This document shows positions 18,212-41,235 of a stretch of 64,000 bases of DNA, in pieces. The stretch lies in contig QHSQ01000108.1 in the NCBI GenBank assembly GCA_003221615.1, positions 9,678 through 73,677 on the forward strand, written 5' to 3'. The position numbers and the translations under genes are program-made. The notes under the pieces are model-generated. The model made no database searches. It was not told the DNA's origin and saw nothing but the letters and a program-made list of their open reading frames with translations. The number at the start of each line of letters is the position of its first letter. Within the stretch, counting starts at the first letter, position 1. The stretch is from Candidatus Rokuibacteriota bacterium. GTDB lineage: Bacteria; Methylomirabilota; Methylomirabilia; Rokubacteriales; CSP1-6.

Positions 18212-18212
18212 G

Positions 18213-19299: not shown

Positions 19300-19302
19300 G
19301 GC

Positions 19303-22412: not shown

Positions 22413-22418
22413 GTCCTC

Positions 22419-23204: not shown

Positions 23205-23211
23205 GGTCGCC

Positions 23212-26130: not shown

Positions 26131-26153
26131 GCCACCTCCAGTCGATCGGAGCC

Positions 26154-27929
26154 TCAGCTGCTCAGCTTGAACCGTGCGAGGCTCGCCGTGAGCGCCTCGG
26201 CCACGCGGACCATCTGATCCATGGTCTTCCGCGTCTCGACCACGGCCTTCTCGGTCTCGACCGCCACGCCGGCGATCGACTGGACCGCGACCGCGCCGCC
26301 CTCGACGCCCCGCACCTGGTCCTGCGTCGTCTGCGAGATCTCCAGCGCCAGCGCCGCGGACTTCTGCGAGATCTCGCCGATCTGGTGCAAACGCTCGCCG
26401 GCCTCGACCGTCACCTTGAAGCCCGCCTCGACTTCACGAGTGCCTTCTTCCATGGCCACGACCGCCTGCTGGGTCTCGGCCTGCACGGCCTTGATCAGCA
26501 CGACGATGTCCTTGGCCGCCTTGCCGGAGCGCTCGGCGAGCTTTCTCACCTCTTCGGCCACGACCGCGAAGCGCAGGCCGGACTCGCCGGCGCCAGCGGC
26601 CTCGATGGCGGCGTTGAGCGCCAGGAGGTTGGTCTGCGACGCGATGTCCTCGATCGTGTTCACGATCTCGGAGATCTCGAGCGAGCGATCGGCCAGGCTC
26701 TTGACCTTCTTCGAGATCCCCTGCACCTCGCCCCGGATCCGCTGCATCCCGGTGAGACTGGCGCGCACCGCGTGCTCGCCCTTGGTCGCGGAGTCGAGCG
26801 TCAGCTTGGCGGCCTCCGCGGAGGCCTCCGCGTTCCCGGCGACCCGCCGCATCGAGCGAGTCAGATTCTCCATCGCGTCGCTCACGCCCACGGCTTCCCG
26901 CGACTGCGTCTGAGCGCCGCCGGCCGTCGCTTCCATCGCGCCGATCATCTCCGTGGCGCTCGTCAGCACCTGCTGCGCGGTATCGCGCACGTCGTTGATG
27001 ATCATCGCCAGCTCGCCGACCATCACGTTGATCGCGTCGACGACGCTGCCGAGGGCGTCGGAGGTCACCTGGCCGCGCTTGGTCAGGTCCCCCTGCGCGA
27101 TCTCGGTCGCGATGTCGAGGAACCGCGTGATGTTGCGCTGGAGCTCCTCGCGCTTGTGGCGCTCCTCGTCACGCTCCGTTTCGGTCTGGACCAGCGACCG
27201 CAGCCGGACCACGGTGTCGTTGAAGGTGTTCGCGAGCTGCCCGATCTCGTCGCGTGACTTCACGACCACGAGCCTCGAGAGATCGCCCTGCCCCACGCGC
27301 TCGGCGACCCGCACGACCTGGATGACCGGCTTGGTGATCTGGTGGGCGAAGACCGCGCCGGCGAGGACCGCGAGCAGCGCGACGCCGCCGAAGACCAGGA
27401 GCAGGTTCTGGCCGGACTTGGCCGCCGCGGCGGTGATGATCGAGCGGTCCATCCCCACGCGAACCGTTCCGAGCTGGCCGGCGAGGACCGGCACGCCGAT
27501 GTCGATGATCTGCTGAACCGCCCCCGTGACCGGGTCGGCGTAGGCGATGTCGCGGACCTGCTGCGTCGCCTCGCCGGGCACCAGGTTGCGGTCGACGATC
27601 CCGGCCGGGACCAGCGGCGAGAACGTGTGCGCGACCAGCGTCTTCTGCGGGTCGTACACGATCACGTACTTGACGCCGTTGATGGCGGCGAACTGGTCGA
27701 CGGTGGCCTGCACCGTCGACGCGTCGCGGGTCAGCAGCAGGTCGACGCCCGAGCTGGCCAGGCTCTTGGCGATGGCGCTGCCCTTGGAGGTGAACTCGTC
27801 CGTCAGGTTCGTGGTGAGGGCGCGCACCGAGATCCACCAGGTGATCGTCGCCAGCGGAACGAGCGTCACCGCCAGGAACAGGATGATCTTCCCGAGGAGA
27901 CCCAGCCGCACGGTCCGTTGCTTGTTCAT
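26154..27929 (-). CDS. Methyl-accepting chemotaxis protein (TM1-periplasmic sensor-TM2-HAMP-signalling domain)
   Basis: The start ATG 27929 ([21 protein letters not shown]...) overlaps the stop of the upstream SBP gene (ATGA). HAMP (...[25 protein letters not shown]...) is present. The conserved hairpin tip reads [42 protein letters not shown]. The rest of listed ORF 26154..29153 is read-through. Confidence 0.9.
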
Positions 27930-29227
27930 GCTTTCACCGCCGCCGCCCAGTCCGTGATGGGGGCCCATCGAGCGTTCACCACTCTGGTGAAGTACACGTT
28001 GTCCAGCCCCTGATGCCGCTCGGGCCCGAACGTGAGGGGCGCGCCGATGCCGAGGTCGAAGCTCCTCAGTGATTCGAGCGCCTGGCGGAATCCGGCGCGC
28101 GTCGGGTTCGGTCCGGCGCGCCGTAATCCCTCGACGATCACCCGGGCATTGACGAAGCCTTCCAGGCTCCGGAAGCTGAGCTGCTCGGGCGCGTGCTTGG
28201 CATCGCGAAGATAGTCGGGAATCTGTGGATTGTGCTTCTCCATCAGCGCCCGATACTCGACGACGCCGGGCAGGCTCACGTCGTCGTAGCTCGGCACCAC
28301 CTGTGAATTGACGAGCGCCTGCGTGTAGTCGCGCGCGGTGGCCTGGCCATGCTTGAGGAGGAGATGCAACATCGCCTCGGAGCCGACGAACGACACGTTC
28401 GAGATCGGCACGGTCCAGCCCAGGTCCCGCGCGGTCCGCACGAACGCGCCGCAACCCTGATAGGCGCCGGTGCACAGCACCGCCTCGACGCCGGCCTCGC
28501 GAAGCGCCTGCACGGCCGGAGTCATGTCGTCCTCGAACTTGGCGCCGCGGATATAGGTGGCCTCGGCGGCGATCCGCATTCCGCGGTGCGCGAGCCCGCG
28601 GGCGACGCCGTCGGTACCGCTGCGGCCGTAGGCGTCGATCTGGTAGTAGACGCCGAACCGACGTACGCCCGTCTGCCAGAAGCGCTCGACGAGCGCCACC
28701 ATCTCCTGCCGGTACGAGGCCCGGATGTTGAAGACCTGCTCGAGATAGGGCTCCTCGCGCTGCGGCTGGGCGCCCGTGAAGTTGCCGACCAGGATCACCT
28801 GGCGGTCGGCATAGCGCTTGATCACCGGGAGCGCGCGCGTGAGCGTCGGCGTGCCGACGTAGTTCGAGAGAAAGAAGACCTGCTCCTTCTCGACGAGCTC
28901 GATCGTGTTCTTGATGCACGGAGTCGGCTCGTACCCGTCGTCGAGCGCGACGACCGAGATCGCGCGGCCGTGCACACCGCCGCGCTGATTGATTTCGCTG
29001 TAGTAGGCCAGCGCGCCGCGATAGAGCTCGACCCCGAGGCCCGCCGAGGGCCCCTTGAAGGCGGCGCTCATACCGATCCGAATGTCCTTGGTGCTCACGC
29101 CGGGGCTGGCGCCCCGCGCATCGATGCCGCTCCGGGCGGCCGCCTGGCCCCACGCCGAACGGTTCCGGCCCAGGACTCCGCCCACCGCGGCCGCCGAGAG
29201 CACCTTGAGCACCGTTCGCCGTTTCAT
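27926..29227 (-). CDS. Periplasmic binding protein, Leu/Ile/Val-binding (type 1, LivK-like) family, encoded inside the che operon
   Basis: GGAGGAGG SD, then ATG 29233 or 29227. Tat-like signal [20 protein letters not shown]. Core ...[53 protein letters not shown].... Confidence 0.85.
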
Positions 29228-29229
29228 CG

Positions 29230-29697
29230 TCATTCCTCCTCCCGCTGCGCTTCTCTCAGCGCCCGCAGAAGCCGTCCCGGATCGAGCAGGGGTACGAGCC
29301 GCTCGCCGTCGGGCAGAAACCCGAGGGCCCACCGCGCGTGGGGCTGCGGGCTCGACTCGTCGAGCGTCACGATGCCGCCGAACGCCTCGAGGCTGACCTC
29401 ACCGTCGATGACCAGTGCGACCTCGAATTCTTCGGCCTCCACGATCAAGGTCGACAGCTTGCGCCCGCCGCGGCGGGCGGCGAGCCCGAGCACTGCACGG
29501 GCATCGGCGATCGGTACGACGTCGCCGCGCAGGTTGGCCACACCCACGAGATGCGGCGGCGCTAGCGGCACCGTCGTCCACTCCTCGAAGATCGCGACCT
29601 CGCGCACCTGGATGACGTCGAACGCGAACGGCTGGCCGGCGAGCGCGAACACGCAGGCGCGGACCGCCGCGGAGCTGTCGAGCAGACTGGTGCTCAT
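29230..29697 (-). CDS. cheW: CheW-like coupling protein
   Basis: ATG 29697 overlaps the cheY stop (ATGA). CheW pattern ...[20 protein letters not shown]...[23 protein letters not shown].... Confidence 0.9.
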
Positions 29698-30056
29698 CGG
29701 AGGAACCGCCTGACGATCGCGAGGAGCTGGTCGGCCGTGAACGGTTTCGCCAGGTACTCGTCCGCGCCCTGGCGCATGCCCCAGATGCGGTCGCTTTCCT
29801 GGTTCTTCGAGCTGACCACGATCACGCGCGCCTGCTTGGTGCGCTCGTCCCGGCGCACGCCGCGGAGCGCCTCGAAGCCGTTCCGCTTGGGCATCACGAT
29901 GTCGAGCAGCACGACGTCCGGCTGCTCCTTGGCGATCTTCTCCTCCAGCTGGTCGCCGTCGAGGTACGTGACAACGTCGTACCCGGCCGATCGGAGGATC
30001 GTTTCCATCACCTGGAGCTCGGAGTACGCGTCGTCGACCACCATCACCTTGGGCAT
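29694..30056 (-). CDS. cheY: Single-domain CheY-like response regulator
   Basis: ATG 30056 (MPKVMVVDDAY...) with GGGAGG upstream. Canonical REC residues (DD, VVLLDIVMP, VVSS, AKPF). Upstream codons of ORF 29694..30167 were discarded. Confidence 0.9.
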   Translation of the reverse strand: MPKVMVVDDAYSELQVMETILRSAGYDVVTYLDGDQLEEKIAKEQPDVVLLDIVMPKRNGFEALRGVRRDERTKQARVIVVSSKNQESDRIWGMRQGADEYLAKPFTADQLLAIVRRFLR

Positions 30057-30211
30057 CGGGGCGCAGGCCTCCCGGGGCGGTTCTGCCGTCGTGTCCGCCG
30101 TATGTGCCTCGGTGCAACCCATCTGCCACCGCCAGCGTCGATGGCGCGCGCCTTTACGCTCGAACAAACGCGGTACTTAGGCGATTTAACTCGCTCCGCG
30201 GCTCGTGCTCG

Positions 30212-30355: not shown

Positions 30356-31132
30356 ATGCTGTTCGCGCGAATCTGGCACCTGGTCCGGGGCACGAAACGA
30401 CAGCCGACGAGCGCACTGATGTTGCGGGCGCAGCGCCTTCGGGACGAGGGACGCTACCGGCGCGCGGCCGGGCTCGTCGACGAAGCGCTGGTCCACGATC
30501 CGAAGAGTGTCGTGGGGCATCTGTTGGCGGCCTCGCTCCACATGGTCCTGCGCGAGACCGGCCAGGCCAGGACCTCGTTCGAGCGAGTGCTCGCGCTCGA
30601 GCCGACGCAGCCGCGAGCGCTGCTGGGGCTCGCGCGCGTCGAGCTCGAGGACGGCGAGACGTCGGCGTGCTGCGCGCTGCTCAATCGAGCGCTGGCACGC
30701 TATCCGGACTTCCCGGAGGCACGCGCCCTGCTCGAGGTCGCCCGGGGGCTCCTGATAACCGCCGACACGAAGCGCGACACCACGTCGAACGGGACGGCCC
30801 ACGCCGACCGTCTGCGTCTGCCGGCCGAGAGCCGCGAAGCGTTGTTCATGCGAGCCGATGCGACCGTGATCGTCGCCGAGCCGCATGGACCGCGGACCGA
30901 CGCGGTCACCGCTCGCGCCGTGAAGCTCGCGACCGTCGCAACGGCGATGCTCGGACGCGCCGGGCTCGGTCCGTTGCGTCACGCCGTCATCGAGGGCGCG
31001 GCCGAGACGACGTACCTGCGCAGGGACGACGCGGCGCTGCTGACCCTGTCCTTCGACCGCGACGTGAAGTGCACGACGGCGCTGGGGCACCTCGAGCGGG
31101 TGTGGCGCAGGTGCCGCTCGGAGCTCGCATGA
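30356..31132 (+). CDS. TPR-repeat protein with C-terminal Roadblock-like region
   Basis: N-terminal TPR-like helices (...RYRRAAGLVDEALVHDPKSV...FERVLALEPTQPRALLGLARVELEDGE...LNRALARYPDFPEARALL...). C-terminus ...ALFMRADATVIVAEP....AVIEGAAETTYLRRDDAALLTLSFDRD... (Roadblock-like by inference). Confidence 0.7.
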   Translation: MLFARIWHLVRGTKRQPTSALMLRAQRLRDEGRYRRAAGLVDEALVHDPKSVVGHLLAASLHMVLRETGQARTSFERVLALEPTQPRALLGLARVELEDGETSACCALLNRALARYPDFPEARALLEVARGLLITADTKRDTTSNGTAHADRLRLPAESREALFMRADATVIVAEPHGPRTDAVTARAVKLATVATAMLGRAGLGPLRHAVIEGAAETTYLRRDDAALLTLSFDRDVKCTTALGHLERVWRRCRSELA

Positions 31133-31521
31133 GCGCCACCGCCGTCGCGACGCGTCCCGCGGACGGGCGCGACCTCCGTGCCGTGCTCGCCGAGCTTCTG
31201 AAGCTCGAGCACATCATCGGCGGGCTCGTCGTCGCTCCCGACGGGCTCGTGATCGCCGCCAATCTTCCGCGCGAGGTTCAGGCCGAGCCGCTGTCAGCGC
31301 TGGCGGCCGCGCTGGGTCGCGAGCTCGAGCTTCGCGGCCCTCGGCTTCGGCGCGGAACGTTTCCGACGGCACAGTTCGCGAGCGTGAGCGGATCCGCGTT
31401 TCTGGGCAGCACTCCCGTGGGCTACATCGTGCTGCTCGGTGAACCGCGCGCGGACTGGGACTCGGTTCGCTCGGGTCTGCGCGGCGCGCTCGGAACCGTC
31501 TATCGCGCCTGGGCGGGCTAG
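31129..31521 (+). CDS. Roadblock/LC7 domain protein
   Basis: The ATG overlaps the stop of the TPR gene (ATGA). Pattern ...IIGGLVVAPDGLVIAANLP....LSALAAALGREL....FASVSGSAFLGSTPVGYIVLLGEPRAD.... Confidence 0.75.
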   Translation: MSATAVATRPADGRDLRAVLAELLKLEHIIGGLVVAPDGLVIAANLPREVQAEPLSALAAALGRELELRGPRLRRGTFPTAQFASVSGSAFLGSTPVGYIVLLGEPRADWDSVRSGLRGALGTVYRAWAG

Positions 31522-31629
31522 TCCACCTCGGCAACTGCGCGAATTTCTTCGCCGAAATCCCTGATAGTTCTTGCTGGTTTCCCGGCGTCTTGGGAGTAAG
31601 ATTTACGCTCACCTAAGGAGAATCCGGCC

Positions 31630-31956
31630 ATGCTAAACGGTGAGCGCTCGATACTGATCGTGGTCCCGAGAGGCGGGCAAGATGCGTGTCGGTCGCTGAG
31701 CCATACCTTCGCCGACGACTCGACGGTCGAGGTGATCGTCGACCGCCGCCTCACCGATCGTCGATCTGGGAACGGCGCGCACCGACCCGAGCGGCGCCAG
31801 GGCGATCGGCGGACGCGGCCCGACGCCGACGCCGAGCTGAAGGTCGACCGGTGGATCGCGGTTCCGCGCGCGACGGGGGCCAATCGGTCGAGCGTCAGGC
31901 GGCCGCTGAGCCGCGTGGGCGCGACCGAGCCGTCCGCTCAGGCCGCCACGGGCTAG
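31630..31956 (+). CDS. Small protein with uncharacterised 'DRR' N-terminal domain (paralog 1 of 3)
   Basis: AAGGAGA SD 8 nt upstream of the ATG, with strong GC3 bias. It shares a pattern with 35360..36190 and 36209..37501: hydrophobic strand (ILIVV), ...VEVIVDRR..., ...DRRTRPDADAELKVDRWIAVP. Confidence 0.6.
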   Translation: MLNGERSILIVVPRGGQDACRSLSHTFADDSTVEVIVDRRLTDRRSGNGAHRPERRQGDRRTRPDADAELKVDRWIAVPRATGANRSSVRRPLSRVGATEPSAQAATG

Positions 31957-31966
31957 TCGTCGCGAG

Positions 31967-31987
31967 CCGGGTAGCGGCGCTACCCGG
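31967..31987. terminator. Perfect 10-bp-arm palindrome CCGGGTAGCG-G-CGCTACCCGG between convergent genes
   Basis: Read directly from the sequence. It lies 11 nt after the stop of 31630..31956 and overlaps the amidohydrolase stop codon (31980-31982). There is no U-tract, so intrinsic-terminator function is an inference. Confidence 0.4.
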
Positions 31988-33338
31988 TTCGAAGCCCCCG
32001 GAGGAGCTGGTCCGGCTCGTAGACCGCGCCGCGCGCGATCACTCGCTCGATGCGTCCGATGTTCCGGATGTCGGCCAGCGGATCGGCGGTCAGCAGCAGA
32101 AGATCGGCCGCTCGACCCGGCGCGATCGTCCCGAAGAGCTCGCGCTTCCCCAGACGCTCTGCGGGCCGCCGGGTCGCCGCCAGGATCGCTTCCATCGGCG
32201 AGAGACCCGCGCGCACCAGAAGCTCGAGCTCCCGATGCAGCGAGAAGCCCGAGACGATCGCGACGTTCGGACAATCGGTTCCCGCCAATACCATCCCGCC
32301 CGCCCGATGAAAGCCGCCGACCAGCGTGAGGATGTTGTCCCACGCACGTCTCATGCGATGCCTGGCCGCCTCCGAGGCGCCGTGCGCGGCGGCGCGGCGC
32401 TCGGCCCACCGGCCGACGAGCTCTTTGCCCACCGCCGAGGGTAAAAGTGGCAGGGCCTTCGTTCGCTCCGGATCGTCCATCGACGTGTCGCCGACATCGT
32501 CGCCGAGAGCGCCCGGCCTCGCGGCATAGAGAACCAGGGTCGGATCGAGCGCCGTACCGGCCGCGATCAGGCCGTCGTAGAGCCGGTGAACCGCGTCGGA
32601 GCGCGGATCGAAATCGCCGAGCCAGCGCCAGAGCCAGCCGCCGTACTCGAAGGGGTTCAGCTTCGCCGGTTCGGCCAGCCAGAACCCCTGAGGCGCGAGC
32701 TGGCCGAAGACGTTCACGTGCTCCACCGAGTCGATGCCCGCGAGCGCGGCCTCGACGCCCCAGGTCGCGTGCTGGTGCATGAAGACCGGCAGGCCCCGCG
32801 CGTGGGCGCGCGCGCACGCGCGGCGCGCCGTGTCGGGTCTCACGGTCACATAGAGCTTGATGGCGTCCACGCCCGCGTCCGCCAGCGCATCGACCTCGGC
32901 CTCCGTGTTCGTCGAGTCGAACCGACGGCAGAAGCCGGCGAATCCCGCGTACAACTCGCCTTCCTCCAGCATCGGTCCTGTAAAGAGAATGCGCGGGCCG
33001 GGCCTCGCGCCTGATTCGATCAGGGCGCGATAGCCCGCGACGTCGTGAAGCTGGCCGCCGAGATCGAGCACCGTAGTGACGCCCGCGGCCAGAAAGAACT
33101 CGGGATGCCACTTCTCGGGCGTGTACACGTGGACGTGCATGTCGACGAGCCCGGGAGTGACGAACTTCCCCTTGCCATCGATGATCGTCGCGTCCGGCGG
33201 AATTGGTGTCGTCACCGCCGACCCGACCGAGGCAACCCGGTCACCCTCGATCACGACCGTTGCGCTCTCGAGGGGAGGACGTCCGGTACCGTCCAGGACG
33301 GTGGCGCCCGAAACGGCCAGCCTGTGGATTTCTCTCAT
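31980..33338 (-). CDS. Amidohydrolase family protein (metal-dependent hydrolase)
   Basis: N-terminal ...GKFVTPGLVDMHVHVY... (HxH metal motif). The remainder is typical of the amidohydrolase superfamily (...GTDCPN..., ...ADLLLLTADPLADIRN...). Confidence 0.85.
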   Translation of the reverse strand: MREIHRLAVSGATVLDGTGRPPLESATVVIEGDRVASVGSAVTTPIPPDATIIDGKGKFVTPGLVDMHVHVYTPEKWHPEFFLAAGVTTVLDLGGQLHDVAGYRALIESGARPGPRILFTGPMLEEGELYAGFAGFCRRFDSTNTEAEVDALADAGVDAIKLYVTVRPDTARRACARAHARGLPVFMHQHATWGVEAALAGIDSVEHVNVFGQLAPQGFWLAEPAKLNPFEYGGWLWRWLGDFDPRSDAVHRLYDGLIAAGTALDPTLVLYAARPGALGDDVGDTSMDDPERTKALPLLPSAVGKELVGRWAERRAAAHGASEAARHRMRRAWDNILTLVGGFHRAGGMVLAGTDCPNVAIVSGFSLHRELELLVRAGLSPMEAILAATRRPAERLGKRELFGTIAPGRAADLLLLTADPLADIRNIGRIERVIARGAVYEPDQLLRGLRTG

Positions 33339-33455
33339 GTCATAAATCCCAGTTTTACCAGGATGTTGCGTGGCACAACCGAGCGGTTACCAACAGAGTT
33401 ATCCACAGCAGTGCATAACCTTCGCCGGGCCTGTCGGTGACCGGGGTCACGAGCC

Positions 33456-35147
33456 TCAGTGCCGAACGGAGGAGACCTTTCCGATCACCCGGAGCACTGA
33501 CTGCGAGTCGGTCTGCTTCACGGGCGCGATTCGCGGCAGACGCACCACGAACTCGCTTCCGCGCCCCGGCCCATCGCTGAAGGCCTCGACTCTCCCACCG
33601 TGAAGCTCCACGAGCCGGCGCACCAGGGTAAGGCCGATGCCGAGGCCGCCCTGAGCATGATCGAGCCGCCGCTCGCCCTGCAGCGGCAAGTCGAACATGT
33701 GAGGAAGAAGCTTGAGCGGAATCCCGATCCCCGTGTCGGAGACGCCGATGACGGCAAGAGCCTCCTCGCCCGTGACCCGAATCCGGATCGTCCCGCCGGG
33801 CGTGGTGTACCTGATCGCGTTCGTTAGCAGATTCGAGACGATCTGGTTGAGCCGCGTCGGGTCCGCGTTCGCCCAGACGGGCTCGGCCCGAACATCGACG
33901 ACGTGGCGCTCGAGCCTTCCCGTGCTCGCCAGGTCGCTCACCGAGCGCTGAACGCTTGTCGCCAGGTTCAACGGCTCGCACGAGAGCGCGATCTGGCCGC
34001 TGGCGACGTGGACGATGTCCAGGAGGTCGTCGACCAACCGGCCGAGATGGGTGATCTGATGACGGATCCCCTCGCGCGCGCGCATCGCGACGTCGTCGTG
34101 GCCGCCGATCCGATCGAGGACGCTGACCGCGCTGATGATGGCGGCCAGCGGATTGCGAAGCTCGTGACCCAGCATCGCGAGGAACTCGTCCTTCGCCCGA
34201 TTGGCGGCTTCGGCTTCGGCGCGCGCGGCCTCGGCCCTCACGAGCAGTTGCTCGCGCTCCTGATCGATGCGCCGGCGCTCTTCGACGACGGCCCCGGCCG
34301 ACATGGCCATCACCGACACGGTGCCCATGAAGACTTGCAGCAGCAGCAGCGACTCGTTCGTCGGCACACTCGCCAGAGGCCCGAAGCCGCGAAGCGTTTC
34401 CCAGACCGCGATGCCGGACAGCACGGCGACGAGCATCGCGGCCTCGCGCTGACGGAAGCGCACGGCGGCCCAGACGAGCGGAGGCGTGCACAGGAACGTG
34501 AGCGGAAGCGTCATCAGCCCCCGATGCGCCAGCCCTTCGCCGAACACCGCGAGCCCGATGAACGTCGTCGTGAGCCAGAGGGCGGCGGCCTCGAGCAACC
34601 GGCCAGACGAGGGGCCGGACCACCAGTCGCGCACCAGCAAAACCAGGAGCGGAGCGAAGACCAGCGCGCCTGTCGCGTCGCCGAGCCACCACGTGAGCCA
34701 GATGCCGTCGAGATCGCCCCATCCCGCGAATCCGCCGAGCGAGAGGCTGACGACGCCGATGGTCGCGCTGACGAGGCTCGACAGCAGGCCCGCGAGCACG
34801 GCGAACTTGAAGACGTCCTGAGCATGGTCGAACGCGCGCGCGCCGTTGGCGTATCGCACGACGAGAAACGCGCCAAGGAGTCCCTCGAGCGTGTTGCCCA
34901 GCGCGATGGCCACCGCCGTCGCCGCCGAGCCCGCGGTGCTGACGTTCACAACGAACGCGCCCGCGAAGATCGCCGGCCAGAGGCGGTAGCCGAGTGTCAA
35001 GAACGCGGCGAGCGCGATTCCAGTCGGCGGCCAAACCGGCGAAGCGCTCGCGTGGACCGACGCGAGGGAAAGCCCGACCTTTCCCGCGAGGACGTAGAGG
35101 CCGAAGATCCCCGCCAGGCTCAGGAGATATTTGCGATCGGCGAGCAT
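33456..35147 (-). CDS. Sensor histidine kinase with N-terminal MASE1 membrane domain
   Basis: MASE1-like multi-TM N-terminus (...LAGKVGLSLASVHASASPVWPPTGIALAAFL...). HisKA H-box FLAMLGHELRNPL. HATPase region (...VSDTGIGIP...GGLGIGLTLVRRLVELHGG...). Confidence 0.85.
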   Translation of the reverse strand: MLADRKYLLSLAGIFGLYVLAGKVGLSLASVHASASPVWPPTGIALAAFLTLGYRLWPAIFAGAFVVNVSTAGSAATAVAIALGNTLEGLLGAFLVVRYANGARAFDHAQDVFKFAVLAGLLSSLVSATIGVVSLSLGGFAGWGDLDGIWLTWWLGDATGALVFAPLLVLLVRDWWSGPSSGRLLEAAALWLTTTFIGLAVFGEGLAHRGLMTLPLTFLCTPPLVWAAVRFRQREAAMLVAVLSGIAVWETLRGFGPLASVPTNESLLLLQVFMGTVSVMAMSAGAVVEERRRIDQEREQLLVRAEAARAEAEAANRAKDEFLAMLGHELRNPLAAIISAVSVLDRIGGHDDVAMRAREGIRHQITHLGRLVDDLLDIVHVASGQIALSCEPLNLATSVQRSVSDLASTGRLERHVVDVRAEPVWANADPTRLNQIVSNLLTNAIRYTTPGGTIRIRVTGEEALAVIGVSDTGIGIPLKLLPHMFDLPLQGERRLDHAQGGLGIGLTLVRRLVELHGGRVEAFSDGPGRGSEFVVRLPRIAPVKQTDSQSVLRVIGKVSSVRH

Positions 35148-35230
35148 ATGAGAGTGCGCGCCCTCGTTCCGGCCGGGTCCGTGCGCACAGGCCCTGACCA
35201 GTCGCCAGTTGTGTGCGCCACAGGCCGGTC

Positions 35231-35248
35231 GCGGGGCTGAGGCCCCGC
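35231..35248. repeat. GC hairpin GCGGGGC-TGAG-GCCCCGC (second copy of the 7736..7752 element)
   Basis: Perfect 7-bp stem with the same stem and flanking bases (GTC...CGGC) as at 7733..7755. It lies ~110 nt downstream of the stop of 35360..36190 on the minus strand. Confidence 0.35.
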
Positions 35249-35359
35249 CGGCAGCGGCGCGCCTCTAAATCGAGGTCGCTACTCTGGGCCCACTCCGGGA
35301 CGAACGCAACCCCAAACTGAGGCGCGGCCGACTCGCCGACCGGAGCGACCCTCGTCGAG

Positions 35360-36190
35360 CTAAGGAGTCTGGGCGGGACGCGGCTTGATGCCGACGGGAG
35401 CGTCGTCGATCGCCGGCTCGCCGCCGATGTCGATCGGCGCATGCCCGACGATTTCACTCTTGACGCGATCCATCAGGCCCTTGGCTTTCGACACGATGCG
35501 TCCAGTCGCGTCCTCGACTCGCTCCGCATATGTCTCGATCGTGCCGCGCCTGGTCTTCTGCGCCCGGGTAGCGGTCGTCCGCGCCGCGGGCGGATTCGGG
35601 CGCGCGCGCGAGACGTTGGCAGGCGCCGGTGCGTTTGTCGGTGGGCCGCTCACGATCGGCGCGTGAGCCGCTCCGGCCGAAGGAGCCTGCTCAGGGCGAG
35701 GCGCGAGCGTCGAGGGTTCGTGTGTCGTCGCTCCCGACGAAGAGGACGCATCGCTGGGTATTCGCTCAGAGAGACTGCTCGAGGGCGGCGACAAGATCAG
35801 CGCGACCATGACCGCGCCGGCGGCGCCGACGACGCGCCGCGGCCGTGCCTCGCGTCTGCGCCTGAAGCTCAGGATATTCTCGAACCGCGCGCGATCGTCG
35901 TCGGGCTCCGTGAGACGGCGCGCCGTCATCGGCGCCCCCGGCACGATGGCAAATCCCTTCGTCCTCACCTCGAGATCCACCTGTGGATTCTGACGGCGAT
36001 CGACAAGTCCCCGGTCCGGCTCGGCGGCGCTCGTTTGGAACACGTTCCGGTCCCGGCGCCGATCCATGACGATCTCGACCTCGTCGTCCGGGTCCAGAGA
36101 CGCCTGCAGGCTCAGAACGAGATCGCTGCACTGCAGTGGATCGCGCGAGACGATACAGAGGCTCCGGCGTGCGGGGTTCATCGCATCCAT
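35360..36190 (-). CDS. 'DRR'-domain membrane protein (paralog 2 of 3)
   Basis: N-terminus ...SLCIVSRDPLQCSDLVLSLQASLDPDDEVEIVMDRRRDR...VDRRQNPQVDLEVRTKGFAIVP. Then an acidic/Arg motif (DDDRARFENILSFRRRRE), one TM helix (VVGAAGAVMVALIL) and a Ser/Pro/Ala-rich tail. Confidence 0.6.
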   Translation of the reverse strand: MDAMNPARRSLCIVSRDPLQCSDLVLSLQASLDPDDEVEIVMDRRRDRNVFQTSAAEPDRGLVDRRQNPQVDLEVRTKGFAIVPGAPMTARRLTEPDDDRARFENILSFRRRREARPRRVVGAAGAVMVALILSPPSSSLSERIPSDASSSSGATTHEPSTLAPRPEQAPSAGAAHAPIVSGPPTNAPAPANVSRARPNPPAARTTATRAQKTRRGTIETYAERVEDATGRIVSKAKGLMDRVKSEIVGHAPIDIGGEPAIDDAPVGIKPRPAQTP

Positions 36191-36208
36191 CGTGGGCGCC
36201 GGGTGTCG

Positions 36209-37501
36209 CTACGGGCCAATAGGAATTTCGACTCGTTTGTCACCTGTGATCACGCGGATCCGGAGATCGACCGGCGCCGACCGGACAGGGGGCAACGTCC
36301 CTCGATAGGTGCCTTGCTCGGGCACGAAGCCCATCCGGACGTTTTCGAGCGTACCGTCCGCCATGCGGGCGATCAGCAACACCTCGGCGTCCGACAGCGG
36401 CTTGCCCGTCGGGTCCGCGATCCTGACCGCGTACGCCCCACCCGATGCGCTGGCCTCGCGAATCAGCTCGATGCGAGGCAGACCAGCAAACCGCGGCGCG
36501 ATCGTCCTCGACACCGGTTCCGGTGACGACGGGACACTCGCGGTCTCTCTGGGAGCCGGCGCGGGAACCGGCGTGCTCGGGCTCGGCCGAACCGGCTCGA
36601 TCGATCTCGGTCTGGCTTTGGAACCCATTCCCGTCGCCGCTCTCGAAGGTGCGGCGCTCTCGACCGGCGGCGTGCTGCTCTCGCTCGGCGAGGTGACCGC
36701 GCCGTTGTCACGCGACGGCGCGGGCTCCGTGGGGGCGGAGCCAAGCGACGCCGATCCGCGAGTCGTCCGCTCGAGAGGCGCGGTCTCGGCGCCTGGTGTA
36801 CGAGTGGGGGCCGAGGCAGGCTTTTCGGCCACCGCCGGAGCCTGCGTCGGGGCCGAAGTGTCGGCCGTCTGAGCTGGCTGATTCGACGGGCCCGGTGCCT
36901 CCGGCGAGATTCGCTGCACGAGGTTGTTCCTGAGACTCTGCCCCGTGGGCGATAGAAGAAACGCGGCGGTTGCCACCGCGACCAGCCCGGCGACGAGCCA
37001 CGGGACGAGGCCGCTCGACCGCTCGCGCCTGAAGTCGCGGATCGCCTCCAGCCGCTCATCGTCGTCATCGTCGAAAGCGCGCCCGCTCGGCACCGAGGGA
37101 ACCAAACGGGACAGCGGAGTCCGGTTGCCTTCCGGGGCGAGACTGCTCGAGCGCTCGCGCTTGAAGTCGCGGATCGCCTCCAGCCGTTCCTCGTCGTCGT
37201 CGACGCCAAGGCGCCCGCTCGGCGCCGAGGGACGCAAACGCGACGGCGGAGTCTGGTCGTCTTCCGAAGCCGGTGCTGGAACCATGGCAAAGCCGTTGGT
37301 CCGCAACGCGGCATCGACTTGAGGCCGGCGACGGCGATCCACCGCGCGTTCCCATTCGCCCTGAGTCTCGCCGCCGCGGCGATCCACGATGATCTCAAGC
37401 TGGTCGTGGGGACGGAGCGACGCTCGGAGGGCCGCGATAAAGTCCCCGCCGCGAATCCGTTCTCCGGAGATGATGCACAGGCACGTCGGCTGATCAGCCA
37501 C
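36209..37501 (-). CDS. 'DRR'-domain membrane protein (paralog 3 of 3) with a duplicated juxtamembrane module and a C-terminal beta-rich domain
   Basis: The likely start is GTG 37501, 5 nt after GGAGG (the listed ORF starts at TTG 37513). N-terminus ...CLCIISGERIRGGDFIAALRASLRPHDQLEIIVDRR...VDRRRRPQVDAALRTNGFAMVP. The 44-aa module ...SRL.PS.PSGR...DDD.ERLEAIRDF.RERSS occurs twice. Then a TM helix (WLVAGLVAVATAAFLL), a Pro/Ser/Ala-rich region and a C-terminal domain (...YAVRIADPTGKPLSDAEVLLIARMADGT...). Confidence 0.65.
   Translation of the reverse strand: MADQPTCLCIISGERIRGGDFIAALRASLRPHDQLEIIVDRRGGETQGEWERAVDRRRRPQVDAALRTNGFAMVPAPASEDDQTPPSRLRPSAPSGRLGVDDDEERLEAIRDFKRERSSSLAPEGNRTPLSRLVPSVPSGRAFDDDDDERLEAIRDFRRERSSGLVPWLVAGLVAVATAAFLLSPTGQSLRNNLVQRISPEAPGPSNQPAQTADTSAPTQAPAVAEKPASAPTRTPGAETAPLERTTRGSASLGSAPTEPAPSRDNGAVTSPSESSTPPVESAAPSRAATGMGSKARPRSIEPVRPSPSTPVPAPAPRETASVPSSPEPVSRTIAPRFAGLPRIELIREASASGGAYAVRIADPTGKPLSDAEVLLIARMADGTLENVRMGFVPEQGTYRGTLPPVRSAPVDLRIRVITGDKRVEIPIGP
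37020..37283. repeat. Tandem 132-bp (44-codon) in-frame duplication inside CDS 36209..37501
   Basis: CGCTCGCGCCTGAAGTCGCGGATCGCCTCCAGCCG at ~37020 recurs as CGCTCGCGCTTGAAGTCGCGGATCGCCTCCAGCCG at ~37152. Similarity continues through both units. Confidence 0.8.
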
Positions 37502-37649
37502 GAGTACCTCCAATGTAGCAACGCGGATGCCGACCCGGGTGGCGAGGGCCCGACCTCGAGGTGGCCGGCTCAGCGCAGAAAGCCCGCGTCAGGTCAGAGG
37601 CAGAGCGCTCCAGTCGGTTCCCCTGGTGAGCCTGGGCGCTCGGGGACAG

Positions 37650-37681
37650 GTAAAAGTTACTCGGCACACGGTAACTTCTAC
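37650..37681. promoter_or_regulatory. AT-rich inverted repeat GTAAAAGTTAC-N10-GTAACTTCTAC in a divergent intergenic region
   Basis: The 11-nt arms have 1 mismatch. This is the most AT-rich patch of the 265-bp region between the paralog-3 gene (-) and the MetE-like gene (+). Confidence 0.25.
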
Positions 37682-37766
37682 ACATTCTGGGGCGTCGGTG
37701 TGGGAAGCGCCTGAGCACGGGATCGAGTACACTCCCGACACTTCGCTCACGCGTGGAGGACGCACC

Positions 37767-38981
37767 ATGAGGCAGAGCCGCGATCAGATTCTGACTAGCC
37801 ATGCGGGGAGTCTGCCACGCCCTGATGCGTTGATCGAGGCCAATCGTGCGCGCGAGTCGGGCATGGCGACCGACGAGCGCCGCTTCCAGGACGAGCTGCG
37901 GTCGAGCGTCGCGGAGGTCGTGCGCCTCCAGAAGCAGGCAGGCATCGCGATTCCCGGCGACGGTGAGTTCGGGAAGTCGATGGGACACAAGGTCAACTAC
38001 CGGGCGTGGTGGAGCTACTCTTTCCAGCGTCTGGGCGGGCTCGAGCTCGGCACCACGGGGCTCTACGACATGCCAGCGCAGCGATCCCGGCCCGGCGAGG
38101 TGGTGCTGACGAGCTTTGCCGATCGTCGCGACCGCGTGAGGTTCGCGGCCGCCTACGCCGACCCCGACTCGGGCATCACGACCGGGCCTCGCTCTGCATT
38201 GTGGCCGGTGTGCGTCGGTAGGCTGACCTACACGGGACAGGCAGCCATCCAGTCCGACATCGCGAACTTCAAGGCGGCGCTGCACGCTGCAGGTGTCCAG
38301 GAAGGCTTCATGACCTCGATCGCGCCGGGCAGCGCTTCACGCATCGCGAATCGCTACTACAAGACCGAAGAGGAGTTTCTATTCGCGTGCGCTGATGCGA
38401 TGCGTGAGGAATACAAGGCCATCGTCGACGCCGGGCTCGTCTTGCAGCTCGATGATCCGGCGATCGCCGAGAACTGGGACATGGTCAATCCGGAGCCCGC
38501 GGTGGCCGACTACAAGAGGTTCTCGATGGTCCGCGTGGAAGCGCTCAACCACGCGCTCAAGGGACTCCCGGAAGACCGGATCCGGTTTCATCTTTGCTGG
38601 GGCAGTTGGCACGGCCCGCATACGACCGACGTACCCATGCGTGACATCGTCGAGGTCATGCTGGCGGTCAAGTGCCGCGCCTACTCGTTCGAGGCCGCCA
38701 ATGTGCGGCACGAGCACGAGTGGAAGGTATGGCAAGACGTGAAGCTACCCGACAGCAAGCTGATCCTGCCCGGGATCGTGAGTCACGCGACGAACGTGGT
38801 CGAGCATCCCGAGCTCGTGGCCGAGCGCATCACGAAATTCGCGAATGCCGTCGGCAAGGAGCGCGTGATCGCCTCGACCGACTGCGGTCTCGGCGGCCGC
38901 GTCCATCCACAGATCGCCTGGGCCAAGCTCGAAGCGCTCGCGCAGGGAGCCGCGCTGGCGACGCGACAGCTCTGGCGCTAG
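37767..38981 (+). CDS. Cobalamin-independent methionine synthase (MetE C-terminal-like) family protein
   Basis: GGAGGA SD, then ATG 37767. Sequence MRQSRDQILTSHAGSLPRP...GIAIPGDGEFGK...IRFHLCWGSWHGPH...ASTDCGLGG, matching the Meth_synt_2-like pattern (Zn-ligand His/Cys/Cys positions). Confidence 0.8.
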   Translation: MRQSRDQILTSHAGSLPRPDALIEANRARESGMATDERRFQDELRSSVAEVVRLQKQAGIAIPGDGEFGKSMGHKVNYRAWWSYSFQRLGGLELGTTGLYDMPAQRSRPGEVVLTSFADRRDRVRFAAAYADPDSGITTGPRSALWPVCVGRLTYTGQAAIQSDIANFKAALHAAGVQEGFMTSIAPGSASRIANRYYKTEEEFLFACADAMREEYKAIVDAGLVLQLDDPAIAENWDMVNPEPAVADYKRFSMVRVEALNHALKGLPEDRIRFHLCWGSWHGPHTTDVPMRDIVEVMLAVKCRAYSFEAANVRHEHEWKVWQDVKLPDSKLILPGIVSHATNVVEHPELVAERITKFANAVGKERVIASTDCGLGGRVHPQIAWAKLEALAQGAALATRQLWR

Positions 38982-38988
38982 GGAAGCC

Positions 38989-41235
38989 TCAGCGGCCCGG
39001 CTGCTCCTTGCCGCCTCCGCGACGCTCTGGCTGCTGACCTTCGGGCTGCTGGCGCCGCGACTCGGCCCGTTCGGGCGATATGCGGTTTGCCGGCTCTCCG
39101 GGAAGCCGCTGCTGCTGTTGTGGTCCCCGCCCCTCGACCCGCTGGGGATGGGGCGCCGGTTGTTGGGCCTGCGGCGGCGGCTGCCGCTGGCCGCGCGCGT
39201 CCTCGCGCGGAGCGGCCGGCCCGGGCCCGGGACGCTGCACATTGCCGTCCGGACGCTGCGTGTTGCCATCCGGGCGCGCCGGACTGTTGTCGGGGCGCCG
39301 CGTGCTCCCGTCGGGTCGCGGAGCGTTGCCTGGACGCTGCGCGTTGCTGTCGGGACGCTGTGCGTTGCTGTTCGGCTGTTGCACGCTGCTGTCGGAACGC
39401 TGCGCGCTACCGGGACGCTGTGCGTTGTTCTCGGGACGCTGTGCGTTCCCGTCGGGGCGCTGCGTGTTCCCCTCGGAGCGCTGCGCGTTGTTGCCGTCTC
39501 GACGCGGCGCGTTGCCGTCGGGACGTTGCGGGTTGCCGCTGGGGCGCTGCGCTTCGTTATCCCGCGCACCGCGCATCGCCTCGGGCGGTTCCGGGGCTCC
39601 GAATTGCCGCGGCTGAGGTGGACGCTGACGCTCCACCTGACTGTTTCCGAACGTGGGCCTCGCGGACACAGCTCCAGTGGATGCCGGCTTCGGCGCCGGC
39701 ACGATCCGGGGCGGCGGTGCGCCGGCACCATTCCCCGCCCGCGGGCCGTCGGCGCGCGGACCTTCGTTATGCGCGCCCTCGACTCGGGCCGCGTCTGCAG
39801 GCCGTGGGCCGTCTCGCCGCGGCGCGCGCGTGGCGACCACCGTCCGGGTGATCGTGTGATCGGGCGGCCGCGTCGCGCGCCCGCTCGCCGCGACGAAGCT
39901 CGACGCGTCGGGAGCCACGCGGATCGGCCCGCGCGCCGGCTCAAGATGGCGCGCGTCGATCTGCGCGATGCGCGCCTGCTGAACAGGGCTGCGGCCGAAG
40001 TGGTCCTCGCGAACCGCGACGACCGCGTTGTGGACGTTGGTGTTCCTGTAGACGTTGATGTTGGTGACGTTCACGACCGTCGTGCGATTGACGACGACGT
40101 TGTTGACGAAGCGCGGCCCGCCCCAGCCGACCCAGGTCGGCCGGCCGACGAACTGGGGTCTGCCCCACCACGGCACGAGCGGCTCACCCCAGCTCAACGC
40201 GACCCAGCTCACCCCGGGGACGCCGATGGCCACACGGACGCTCGGCGCTCCGAAGAACGCGACCAGCGCGGGGGCGTAAACAGGCCTGACGATCACGGGC
40301 CCCGGCGCCCACGCCCAGTAGCCACTCACGAAGACCCAGCGGCCATAGTGATATGGAGCCCAGCCCCACGGCGCGGTATCGACCCAGGTCCAGCCGTAAT
40401 ACGGATCCATGACCCAGCGGCCAGTACTGTACGGCGCCCACCCGGCAGGAACCGACTGGGGAACCCACACGGATCCGTACGTCGGAACCACTCGCCAGTC
40501 GCCGTAATGGTCGAGGTCATCGACGCCGTACACGCCCGCGGAGACGTAGCGAGAGCTGATCGTATCGATGAGGTCCTCGGTGCGCGCGTAGTTCCACCGA
40601 TCCCACACGTCGAGCTCCGGGGCCACGTAGCTCCGCACGGTCGGCGTCTCCACGCCCTCGAGCACCACCTCTTCGCTCGACGCGATCGCCACGGCCTGGC
40701 CACCGGCAGGCGTCATCGTCGCCTGTCCGGAGCGCCGCGTCACGAAGGAGCTCCCGCTCTGCGTCACGTCGACACGGTAGTAGCCAGCGCGCTCGATCGT
40801 GAACGCCGCCTGAGGCGTATCGATCTCCACCGTGCGGCCCGGATCGACGCTGCGGAGGTCGAGCGCGACGTGGCCCCCGGTGACCTTGATCTGCAGGAAA
40901 TCCGGCTCGTGGTTCACGAGACCGAGCTGGGAGTCGCCCCATGCCCGCACGAACGCGCGCGCGCCCACCTGGAGCTCGAGATTGCCCCGGTTACCCGTGT
41001 AGAGCTCGTCCCCGGGCGCCAGGGCCGTGTTGACTTGCGCGGGAGCCCAGTCCGACGCCCCCGGCCGAAAATAAGAGACCTCGCCCTCGGCATAGCTCAG
41101 CCGGGGCGGGGTGTTACCAATCGCGCCGTCGTCACTCTCAGCCGCCCGGACGGCTCCCACACCGAGAACAGTCTGAGAGGCGAGCATCAGAGCCAGAGCA
41201 GCCGAGATTGCCGGCCTTCCCGCACGCCTGAGCAT
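38989..41235 (-). CDS. Large secreted protein: FecR-like N-terminal domain, Trp/Tyr/Gly-rich central domain (DUF6600-like), C-terminal heptapeptide repeat array
   Basis: Signal peptide MLRRAGRPAISAALALMLASQTVLGVGAVRA. FecR-like ...GEVSYFRPGASDWAPAQVNTALAPGDELYTGNRGNLELQVG.... Central ...GWAPYSTGRWVMDPYYGWTWVDTAPWGWAPYHYGRWVFVSGYWAWAPG.... C-terminal (QRPDGNA)n repeats. Confidence 0.8.
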   Translation of the reverse strand: MLRRAGRPAISAALALMLASQTVLGVGAVRAAESDDGAIGNTPPRLSYAEGEVSYFRPGASDWAPAQVNTALAPGDELYTGNRGNLELQVGARAFVRAWGDSQLGLVNHEPDFLQIKVTGGHVALDLRSVDPGRTVEIDTPQAAFTIERAGYYRVDVTQSGSSFVTRRSGQATMTPAGGQAVAIASSEEVVLEGVETPTVRSYVAPELDVWDRWNYARTEDLIDTISSRYVSAGVYGVDDLDHYGDWRVVPTYGSVWVPQSVPAGWAPYSTGRWVMDPYYGWTWVDTAPWGWAPYHYGRWVFVSGYWAWAPGPVIVRPVYAPALVAFFGAPSVRVAIGVPGVSWVALSWGEPLVPWWGRPQFVGRPTWVGWGGPRFVNNVVVNRTTVVNVTNINVYRNTNVHNAVVAVREDHFGRSPVQQARIAQIDARHLEPARGPIRVAPDASSFVAASGRATRPPDHTITRTVVATRAPRRDGPRPADAARVEGAHNEGPRADGPRAGNGAGAPPPRIVPAPKPASTGAVSARPTFGNSQVERQRPPQPRQFGAPEPPEAMRGARDNEAQRPSGNPQRPDGNAPRRDGNNAQRSEGNTQRPDGNAQRPENNAQRPGSAQRSDSSVQQPNSNAQRPDSNAQRPGNAPRPDGSTRRPDNSPARPDGNTQRPDGNVQRPGPGPAAPREDARGQRQPPPQAQQPAPHPQRVEGRGPQQQQRLPGEPANRISPERAESRRQQPEGQQPERRGGGKEQPGR
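39220..39555. repeat. About 15-16 tandem 21-nt (some 18/24-nt) coding repeats encoding QRPDGNA-type heptapeptides
   Basis: Plus-strand units such as GGGACGCTGTGCGTTGCTGTC and GGGACGCTGTGCGTTGTTCTC repeat. The translation reads QRPSGNP QRPDGNA PRRDGNNA QRSEGNT QRPDGNA QRPENNA ... QRPDGNV. Confidence 0.8.

Follow-up and report, generated by a model that had tools for sequence, protein, structure and literature searches.

Actinobacterial helix-turn-helix (HTH) domains of the LuxR type are found alone and in the combinations REC+LuxR, CHD(cyclase)+LuxR (the Rv0386 group), AAA+LuxR, TPR+LuxR and PAS+LuxR (PMC3466318). In single-pass transducers of the ToxR/CadC type, a cytoplasmic N-terminal head is joined through a juxtamembrane linker and one transmembrane (TM) helix to a periplasmic sensor, and Alg44 has a comparable layout with an N-terminal PilZ domain, a TM helix and a periplasmic domain. 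In membrane-anchored anti-sigma factors, too, a cytoplasmic N-terminal part is followed by one TM helix and a variable tail outside the cytoplasm. Three paralogous proteins, here called P1, P2 and P3, are encoded in a stretch of 64,000 nucleotides (the window) of contig QHSQ01000108.1, assembly GCA_003221615.1, from Candidatus Rokuibacteriota bacterium. They share a collinear N-terminal domain of about 80 amino acids (aa), which is termed 'DRR'. P1 (31630-31956, + strand in the list of open reading frames (ORFs)) is a soluble DRR protein of 108 aa. P2 (35360-36190, - strand; 276 aa) consists of a DRR head, a juxtamembrane motif, a TM helix, a Ser/Pro/Ala-rich tail and a C-terminal amphipathic helix, and P3 (36209-37501, - strand; 430 aa) consists of a DRR head, a duplicated juxtamembrane motif, a TM helix, a Pro/Ser/Ala-rich linker and a predicted periplasmic beta-sandwich. 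In the order of their parts, P2 and P3 resemble ToxR and CadC, Alg44 and the membrane-anchored anti-sigma factors alike.

DRR is new as a domain, but its setting is a familiar one of modular one- and two-component proteins and single-pass transducers. It stands where HTH or PilZ domains stand elsewhere, namely behind REC, GAF, PAS-HisKA and cyclase-STAND-TPR arrangements and as the head of single-pass proteins. Rokubacteria and other Methylomirabilota abound in soil and have large genomes, in which the regulatory repertoire essentially lacks annotation. We know of no cultured representative of Rokubacteria/Methylomirabilota outside the Methylomirabilis group. Defining DRR would allow the annotation of thousands of 'hypothetical proteins' and would enlarge the known set of output or receptor domains in bacterial signal transduction. 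The inputs of MASE1 kinases are poorly understood, and DRR would give a first handle on how such a kinase might receive extracytoplasmic information. The small size of the domain, together with the existence of soluble versions, makes its binding properties approachable in vitro without culturing the organism.

The DRR domain of P1, P2 and P3

DRR is a real, selected and previously undescribed domain of about 80 aa. The three N-termini are much more alike than chance would allow: in composition-adjusted BLASTP comparisons, E = 3e-18 for P2 and P3 (38% identity over 119 aa), E = 5e-8 for P1 and P2 and E = 1e-5 for P1 and P3. In the three-way alignment, D43, R44, R45, R60, D64, R65, R66, P69, D72, V83 and P84 are invariant, and the hydrophobic core positions of the domain are conserved. 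This alignment reproduces the pattern described in the initial annotation of the window, which a model had made from the letters and an ORF list, namely a hydrophobic strand, (V/L)E(V/I)I(V/M)DRR, a variable spacer and DRRxxPxxDxxL...(W/F)AxVP. All three ORFs are present where that annotation had placed them. A six-frame scan of the whole window with a hidden Markov model (HMM) built from the three N-termini detects exactly three copies with E = 1e-37 to 1e-45 and no further copy below E = 0.3. The copies cover residues 6-81 of P1 (31645..31872, + strand; E = 6e-40), residues 8-86 of P2 (35933..36169, - strand; E = 2.6e-45) and the N-terminus of P3 (37271..37501, - strand; E = 2e-37). P3 starts at GTG 37501, as had been proposed, with GGAGG 5 nt upstream, and the TTG at 37513 in the program-made ORF list is an over-extension.

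P1, P2 and P3 are genes under purifying selection. The called frames have a GC content at third codon positions (GC3) of 0.77-0.84. Ratios of nonsynonymous to synonymous substitution rates (dN/dS) were calculated by the Nei-Gojobori method against seven orthologues from metagenomic loci, and the ranges exclude the near-identical locus L056 unless stated. The ratio for the DRR domain is 0.14-0.29 in P3, 0.22-0.38 in P2 and 0.09-0.41 in P1. It is 0.10-0.21 for the C-terminal domain of P3 and 0.34-0.62 for the P3 linker and the P2 tail, the comparison value for the adjacent histidine kinase being 0.10-0.15. Against L056, where dS is only about 0.05 and the values are noisier and higher, most regions give 0.47-0.68, the kinase 0.25 and the juxtamembrane/TM segment of P3 2.0; in the same comparison the P3 DRR domain reaches up to 0.57 and the P3 C-terminal domain 0.47. 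Over all comparisons, P2 spans 0.22-0.49 in its DRR domain and 0.38-0.68 in its tail.

The DRR region of P1, P2, P3, 83 long homologues and the short forms has no match in Pfam-A 2025, NCBIfam 20, PHROGs 4 or PADLOC 2. A profile hmmsearch of PDB sequences with DRR gives a best E of only 0.53. Foldseek searches with the DRR model give a best E of 0.42 (TM-score 0.3) against PDB and of 0.17 against BFVD, neither of which is significant, and a literature search for a 'DRR motif' or for signalling domains of Rokubacteria found nothing relevant. The HMM, PDB and AlphaFold checks that the initial annotation had suggested have been run in this way, and no characterised family emerged from them. Partial matches to thioredoxin-like and FtsZ folds in Foldseek are insignificant and are confined to the strand-helix-strand part. 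A truncated receiver domain, suggested by the likeness of LCIVSRD...VEIV to strand 1, helix 1 and strand 2 of REC, was rejected by hhalign, which gives a probability of 1% when a 93-sequence DRR alignment is compared with seven REC domains from the same loci (16 aligned columns).

An AlphaFold2 model of the P2 DRR domain (m488b37e8b37e), based on the 93-sequence alignment, has a mean predicted local distance difference test (pLDDT) score of 77.5, rising to 89-91 in the structured blocks and falling to about 50 in the loop. The model is composed of a strand (residues 8-14), a helix (21-31), a second strand (37-42), a low-confidence and largely disordered loop (45-68), a second helix (69-78) and a third strand (80-87). 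The AlphaFold model of full-length P3 repeats this strand-helix-strand-helix-strand pattern. The invariant DRR triplet is predicted to lie at the end of strand 2 and the second (D/E)RR triplet just before helix 2, the two triplets flanking the Arg-rich loop. Because a strand-helix-strand crossover needs parallel strands, both triplets would be located on the C-terminal edge of the sheet beside the N-terminus of a helix. Triplets at the sheet edge together with a flexible Arg-rich loop would produce a geometry typical of a phosphate or polyanion site in alpha/beta folds.

Distribution and architectures of the DRR family

Searched exhaustively with HMMER, 1.84 billion representatives yield 1649 clusters (50% identity) at E ≤ 1e-3, of which 258 are at E ≤ 1e-10. 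With a second profile, a word-indexed search yields 1688 clusters at 90% identity. The named hits and a scan of GTDB belong overwhelmingly to Methylomirabilota/Rokubacteria. Fewer members are found in Actinomycetota (Solirubrobacterales, Conexibacter, Thermoleophilia) and Acidobacteriota, and a few in Acidoferrum and Aminicenantes. The GTDB scan relied on one narrow peptide pattern (alignment A6), and the taxon list is therefore a lower bound; within the named sources and this single pattern there are no Proteobacteria. The initial annotation had placed similar proteins in many GC-rich bacteria, which is right as regards a widespread family but too broad for the taxa named here. Its picture of an uncharacterised, widespread and small Arg-rich module, used both alone and as the head of single-pass proteins, agrees with the lack of any database match and with the 1649 clusters.

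Sequence statistics were obtained from 368 sampled domains. Near-invariant positions across them are confined to the hydrophobic core and the two (D/E)RR triplets. The stretch between the triplets has a median length of 24 aa (range 8-82) and contains a median of 9 Arg. The net charge of the domain has a median of +3 and is +3 in P1, -3 in P2 and 0 in P3. About two thirds of the sampled members (238/361) are stand-alone proteins of 76-130 aa, and a TM segment follows the DRR domain in 73 of the first 193 members.

DRR is a mobile module of bacterial signal-transduction proteins, as seen from fusions that were found by our own gene calling on GTDB loci with Pfam and by the representative search. 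The fusions to REC, GAF, HisKA and cyclase-STAND-TPR, which are absent from the initial annotation, are the strongest functional clue. DRR occupies the output position of one- and two-component architectures in REC-DRR (L023), GAF-DRR (P0186) and cyclase-AAA_16-TPR-DRR proteins, and the reverse order DRR-REC is present in L019. The cyclase-STAND fusions are proteins of about 1175 aa in which a double zinc ribbon (DZR), a class III nucleotide cyclase (Guanylate_cyc), an AAA_16 STAND ATPase, TPR and DRR follow each other; they are encoded at L022 45-3560, L028 686-4225 and, in fragmented form, L143 1984-5327. MASE1-PAS-HisKA-DRR (L047 2315-4213) and PAS-HisKA-DRR (L043 3137-4216) lack HATPase_c and carry DRR in its place. 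In both of these loci the next gene encodes a REC-HisKA-HATPase_c protein, and two REC-GerE regulators are encoded upstream. The representative search also finds a DZR-DRR-TM-beta-sandwich protein (P0077) and tandem arrays of two or three DRR domains (P0197, P0131 and P0168). The architecture of P3, in which DRR is followed by an acidic/Arg juxtamembrane helix, a TM helix, a Pro-rich linker and a beta-sandwich, is present in at least 39 clusters at 50% identity. In L034 (1032-1589), L039 (3839-4267) and L027 (3815-4234), an N-terminal extension with a conserved 'D(P)xETHG(I/M)CPRH' precedes DRR.

DRR is about as small as the LuxR (GerE) HTH and takes the architectural slots described for it (PMC3466318), being found on its own and at the C-terminal end of REC, Guanylate_cyc-AAA_16-TPR and PAS-containing proteins. 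The proteins of about 1175 aa have the layout of the Rv0386 group of M. tuberculosis, with DRR replacing the LuxR HTH. However, the LuxR HTH is a four-helix domain, whereas DRR is predicted to have a strand-helix-strand-helix-strand fold with a disordered Arg-rich loop, and there is no sequence or fold likeness between the two.

Membrane parts of P2 and P3 and possible roles of DRR

The juxtamembrane acidic/Arg motif of P2, DDDRARFENILSFRRRREARPRR (35834..35902, - strand), is conserved in P2- and P3-like proteins. It is followed by the TM helix VVGAAGAVMVALILSPP (35783..35833, - strand), a hydrophobic stretch with an Arg cluster before it. Because this Arg cluster precedes the TM helix, the positive-inside rule would place the N-terminus of P2 in the cytoplasm. 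The tail of P2 includes a putative extracytoplasmic amphipathic segment, IETYAERVEDATGRIVSKAKGLMDRVKSEIVG (35444..35539, - strand), which has no match in Pfam and is conserved in P0056, P0058, P0060, P0063 and the split gene of L001. P3 contains a 132-bp tandem duplication (37001..37266, - strand; Tandem Repeats Finder, 2.0 copies, 85% match), which doubles the juxtamembrane motif DDDxERLEAIRDFxRERSS (37145-37201 and 37013-37072). In the L002 orthologue this motif is present only once. The TM helix of P3 (36947..37009, - strand) corresponds to AlphaFold helices 170-187 and 189-202 with pLDDT 81-88. It is followed by a Pro/Ser/Ala-rich disordered linker (36500..36946, - strand; pLDDT <55 over residues 203-333) and by a C-terminal extracytoplasmic beta-sandwich (36212..36499, - strand) modelled with eight strands at pLDDT 90-95. 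Foldseek matches this beta-sandwich to CrdA (9ll4), DUF4426 (3uc2), FetP/P19 (3nrp) and filamin Ig with E = 0.008-0.03 and a probability of about 1, at target-normalised TM-scores of 0.4-0.55 and sequence identities of 7-17%. In Pfam it has only a sub-threshold match to CarboxypepD_reg. CrdA, FetP/P19 and DUF4426 are metal-binding proteins of the periplasm and likewise beta-sandwiches, and the resemblance is at the level of the fold only. Judged from sequence, both P2 and P3 have one TM helix and an extracytoplasmic C-terminal part, as expected of single-pass proteins with the N-terminus inside. The initial annotation had listed an acidic/Arg juxtamembrane motif, one TM helix and tails rich in Ser, Pro and Ala, and all of these are present in P2 and P3.

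The preferred reading, which is put forward tentatively, is that DRR may be a nucleic-acid-binding output domain and that P2 and P3 may be ToxR-like membrane-tethered regulators working with the MASE1 kinase. Nucleic-acid binding is proposed because of the geometry of the triplets, the presence of DRR in slots of the LuxR-HTH type and the nuclease genes (NYN, SNase and RNase H) among its neighbours. In this signalling output or adaptor domain, the two triplets and the flexible Arg-rich loop would form a polyanion-binding site, nucleic acid being slightly favoured over a cyclic nucleotide as the polyanion, and DRR would bind nucleic acid probably as a dimer. In P2 and P3, the N-terminus would be in the cytoplasm as in ToxR, and the extracytoplasmic module, which is a metal-protein-like beta-sandwich in P3 and an amphipathic helix in P2, would govern which target the DRR head binds. 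Such control would be relayed via the conserved acidic/Arg juxtamembrane helix. P2 and P3 would probably act jointly with the co-transcribed MASE1 histidine kinase, and P1 would be the soluble member, normally composed of DRR and a Cys-rich (zinc-ribbon-like) domain and encoded with TPR and MglB-like Roadblock proteins. The link to the kinase is supported by synteny in at least 20 loci, even at P3 identities of 33-45%, and by the independent MASE1-PAS-HisKA-DRR fusion.

Several observations weigh against this reading. The ligand of DRR is one that we infer, and no structural analogue of the domain was found by Foldseek in PDB or BFVD. The heads of P2 and P3 are non-cationic (net charge -3 and 0), which is unusual for a DNA-binding head. 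Unlike ToxR and CadC, P2 and P3 have no Pfam match to the OmpR-type winged helix (Trans_reg_C), and the predicted fold of their heads differs from it. An invariant Asp in each triplet is commoner in base-recognising nucleotide sites (the RxxD of the I-site, the RxD/RxxD of BldD, and PilZ) than in backbone contacts. In a HisKA-DRR fusion, a DNA-binding domain would be unexpected. P3-like paralogues elsewhere have heterogeneous neighbours with no MASE1 kinase among them, so that the link to the kinase may apply to a single orthologous locus. The nuclease neighbourhoods are likewise restricted to a single orthologous group each, and the SNase has a signal-peptide-like N-terminus. Moreover, P2 is eroded or lost in several relatives and is hence not essential to the locus.

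A wider view, which is conceivable but doubtful, is that DRR represents a structurally new class of ligand-binding output domain with paired triplets and an induced-fit loop, whose ligand would be either a nucleic-acid element or a nucleotide messenger. On this view, an expanded signalling network of the uncultured soil phylum Methylomirabilota/Rokubacteria would have DRR as its chief effector or receptor. MASE1 kinases would owe an extracytoplasmic sensing arm to single-pass DRR proteins, and in the HisKA-DRR proteins DRR would take the place of the ATPase domain of the kinase.

It is possible, without being likely, that the ligand of DRR is a nucleotide second messenger (cyclic di-GMP (c-di-GMP), another cyclic (di)nucleotide or (p)ppGpp) and that the domain serves as its receptor in the fashion of PilZ. 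The ligand would order the Arg-rich loop between the triplets and thereby alter the attached module, and P2 and P3 would be Alg44-like. PilZ receptors are similar to DRR in that they are small and usually stand alone, with occasional tandem copies and fusions to signalling proteins, and in that they have a flexible Arg-rich loop and a conserved Asp; the DRR loop is predicted to be disordered, like the N-terminal loop of PilZ. However, 86 scanned members of the DRR family have no PilZ match, the D/NxSxxG motif is not found in P1, P2, P3 or the sampled domains, and the DRR model is alpha/beta rather than a beta-barrel. Nor does DRR have any likeness in Pfam to MshEN, GIL or another known receptor. 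The PilZ-loop-like RRxxxR is present in 215 of 366 domains including that of P1, but P3 and many other members lack it. In the model, the Asp-Arg-Arg pairs at the C-terminal edge of a parallel sheet, together with the N-terminus of a helix, would correspond to the usual nucleotide site of alpha/beta folds. The same few invariant residues are retained in all architectures, suggesting one universal ligand, and the neutral charge of the P2 and P3 heads would also fit. The fusion of DRR to an adenylate/guanylate cyclase-STAND protein, and a stand-alone copy encoded in L016 between a REC-HD_5 (HD-GYP-type) protein and a T2SSE/PilT-like ATPase, point in the same direction. However, slots of the REC-X, GAF-X and STAND-TPR-X type are more often outputs than second inputs, and GGDEF/EAL neighbours are not enriched in 99 scanned neighbour genes.

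A role of DRR as a docking module of two-component systems, which would bind the dimerization and histidine phosphotransfer (DHp, HisKA) helices or the receiver, is rather improbable. P2 and P3 would be 'third-component' proteins (cf. SafA and MzrA) that lend a periplasmic sensor to the MASE1 kinase and act on its DHp. The synteny of P3, P2 and the MASE1 kinase in at least 20 loci agrees with such a role, but most P3-like paralogues have no kinase nearby, and the amino-acid sequences of P2 and P3 evolve 3-5 times faster than that of the kinase. The HisKA fusions of L047 and L043, in which DRR comes right after HisKA in place of the ATPase domain and a REC-HisKA-HATPase_c gene is next, would provide a direct setting for docking, as would the REC-DRR and DRR-REC fusions and the receiver domains that are the commonest neighbour family of DRR genes (6/55). 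In contrast, most DRR members are stand-alone and are encoded in non-signalling neighbourhoods. The near-neutral heads of P2 and P3 fit a protein interface, whereas invariant charged triplets combined with a loop whose length varies are uncommon at a single fixed interface of this kind.

It is very improbable that P2 and P3 are anti-sigma factors tethering a sigma factor at the membrane. The initial annotation had called their topology anti-sigma-like, and this holds for the membrane topology, which is the same (N-terminus in, one TM helix, variable extracytoplasmic tail), but not for the rest. Membrane-anchored anti-sigma factors (ZAS/RskA type) have a helical N-terminal domain, often a zinc motif, and a partner gene for an extracytoplasmic function (ECF) sigma factor, whereas P2 and P3 are predicted to have the alpha/beta strand-helix-strand-helix-strand fold, the HxxxCxxC motif is absent from the P1, P2 and P3 sequences, and an adjacent ECF sigma gene is lacking both in the window and in 20 or more syntenic loci, where the neighbours are the MetE-like gene, the kinase and the amidohydrolase gene. 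A sigma-70-family gene does adjoin a stand-alone DRR gene in three loci (L020, L024 and L030), but these sigma factors are primary-like (regions 1.2-4), their genes are convergent to DRR, and all three belong to one orthologous group. Fusions to REC, GAF, HisKA and STAND do not fit an anti-sigma role either.

The view that P1, P2 and P3 are spurious high-GC ORFs, alike only through Arg-rich low-complexity composition, could draw on a 69% GC genome with many long overlapping ORFs and on a shared pattern that is partly Arg-rich, but it is refuted because of the selection and homology data, namely composition-corrected E-values as low as 3e-18, a conserved hydrophobic core, GC3 of 0.77-0.84, the Shine-Dalgarno-GTG start of P3, dN/dS well below 1 in at least seven orthologues, a confident AlphaFold core and thousands of homologues. 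Purifying selection also settles the doubt about spurious ORFs that the initial annotation had raised itself.

P1, the locus and its gene neighbourhoods

P1 is identical to the NCBI entry 'hypothetical protein DME00_12520 [Candidatus Rokuibacteriota]'. All of its orthologues are proteins of 175 aa, in which DRR is followed by a Cys-rich domain (CC..CxxC..CPLCG..C). This domain of about 67 aa has no match in Pfam and is strongly constrained in the orthologues (omega 0.04-0.12). The P1 of the window is a deletion variant of this DRR + Cys-rich protein. DNA alignment with L063, L066 and L072 locates the junction of a 201-nt in-frame deletion at 31873..31881 (+ strand; about 31876/31877), and the deletion takes the Cys-rich domain out of the window copy. 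It could be either a real lineage-specific loss or an assembly artefact of the metagenome-assembled genome. P1 is short here because of this deletion, and the description of it as soluble and short in the initial annotation is correct for the 108-aa copy but does not extend to the 175-aa orthologues. L001 and L002 keep the order of a TPR gene, a gene for a 130-aa protein and a gene for the 175-aa DRR protein. In the window, a TPR gene (30356..31132, + strand) and a Roadblock/LC7 gene (31129..31521, + strand), both identified by Pfam, are located just upstream of P1 on the same strand.

The window has about 69% GC, and long overlapping ORFs are frequent in it. P3, P2, the kinase gene and the amidohydrolase gene are all co-directional on the - strand, and the gaps P3/P2, P2/kinase and kinase/amidohydrolase are 18, 212 and 117 bp, respectively. 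The kinase (33456..35147, - strand) is a MASE1-HisKA-HATPase_c histidine kinase by Pfam (MASE1 9e-47, HisKA 1e-13, HATPase_c 3e-27), as the initial annotation had it, and has itself almost no periplasmic part. The amidohydrolase gene (31980..33338, - strand; Pfam Amidohydro_1 4e-20) is the final gene of the run and lies tail-to-tail with P1. A scan of 31400-37800 finds no sigma-70-like promoters, and terminator-like sites in it are at chance level. On the other side, P3 adjoins a gene for a cobalamin-independent methionine-synthase-like (MetE-like) protein, Meth_synt_2 (37527-38981, + strand). Next to this is the gene for a DUF6600 protein of 748 aa (38989-41235, - strand), which has a signal-peptide-like N-terminus. 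A long C-terminal stretch of the DUF6600 protein is made of degenerate 'GN(A/T)QRP(D/E)' repeats, and its gene is kept beside the MetE-like gene in syntenic loci.

Among 80 P3-related metagenomic loci that were retrieved, the order DUF6600, MetE-like, P3, P2, MASE1 kinase, amidohydrolase and P1 is kept in at least 20. Across the syntenic loci, the kinase is 71-97% identical, P3 33-60% and P2 55-75%. The P2 orthologue is truncated, split or a remnant in L066 (85 aa, = P0049), L085, L118, L131, L001 (559-1354) and L002 (1970-2377). The loci with an eroded P2 are otherwise syntenic and retain P3 and the kinase, and P2 appears to be dispensable at the locus. P3-like paralogues located elsewhere lack a MASE1 kinase nearby, and around 13 of them the neighbours are heterogeneous metabolic and transport genes.

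DRR genes have no universal neighbour: 30 further GTDB loci are heterogeneous apart from REC (6/55) and sigma-70 (3/55). In L003-L015 (e.g. L008 5462-6828), from Rokubacteria, a conserved trio consists of an NYN_YacP ribonuclease-like gene, a DRR gene of 78-93 aa and an SNase gene, whose product is thermonuclease-like with a signal-peptide-like N-terminus. In Solirubrobacterales (L029, L035, L041, L045 and L048; e.g. L041 3989-4626), a divergent DRR gene of 79 aa overlaps the start of an RNase H (RVT_3) gene by 4 nt, and this pair is flanked by EF-G and a 206-aa gene with no Pfam match on one side and by FtsW on the other. The sigma-70-family gene (regions 1.2-4) that is convergent to a stand-alone DRR gene of the 'LRLTSFAIVTLP' type is found at L020 1813-2892, L024 1239-2159 and L030 3358-4275. 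The NYN-DRR-SNase, DRR-RNase H and convergent sigma-70 neighbourhoods are each within one orthologous group. DnaE or LigD genes are present near the DRR fusions of L023 and L019. Meth_synt_2 is also encoded about 4 kb from the unrelated NYN-DRR-SNase trio (L003 631-1827 and L008 705-1727), and its presence near both P3 and the trio is probably a coincidence.

The TPR, Roadblock and P1 genes are divergent from a Che/MglA/MglB cluster at 17447-30167, whose presence near the paralogs the initial annotation had already recorded. At 17447-26130 (- strand) this cluster encodes a NERD-domain protein, an MglB-like Roadblock protein, an MglA-like Ras GTPase, a 754-aa protein without a Pfam match, REC-Roadblock and REC-DUF4388 proteins and a CheA-CheW-REC hybrid, a set that resembles a Rokubacterial module for polarity or motility of the Mgl/Che type.

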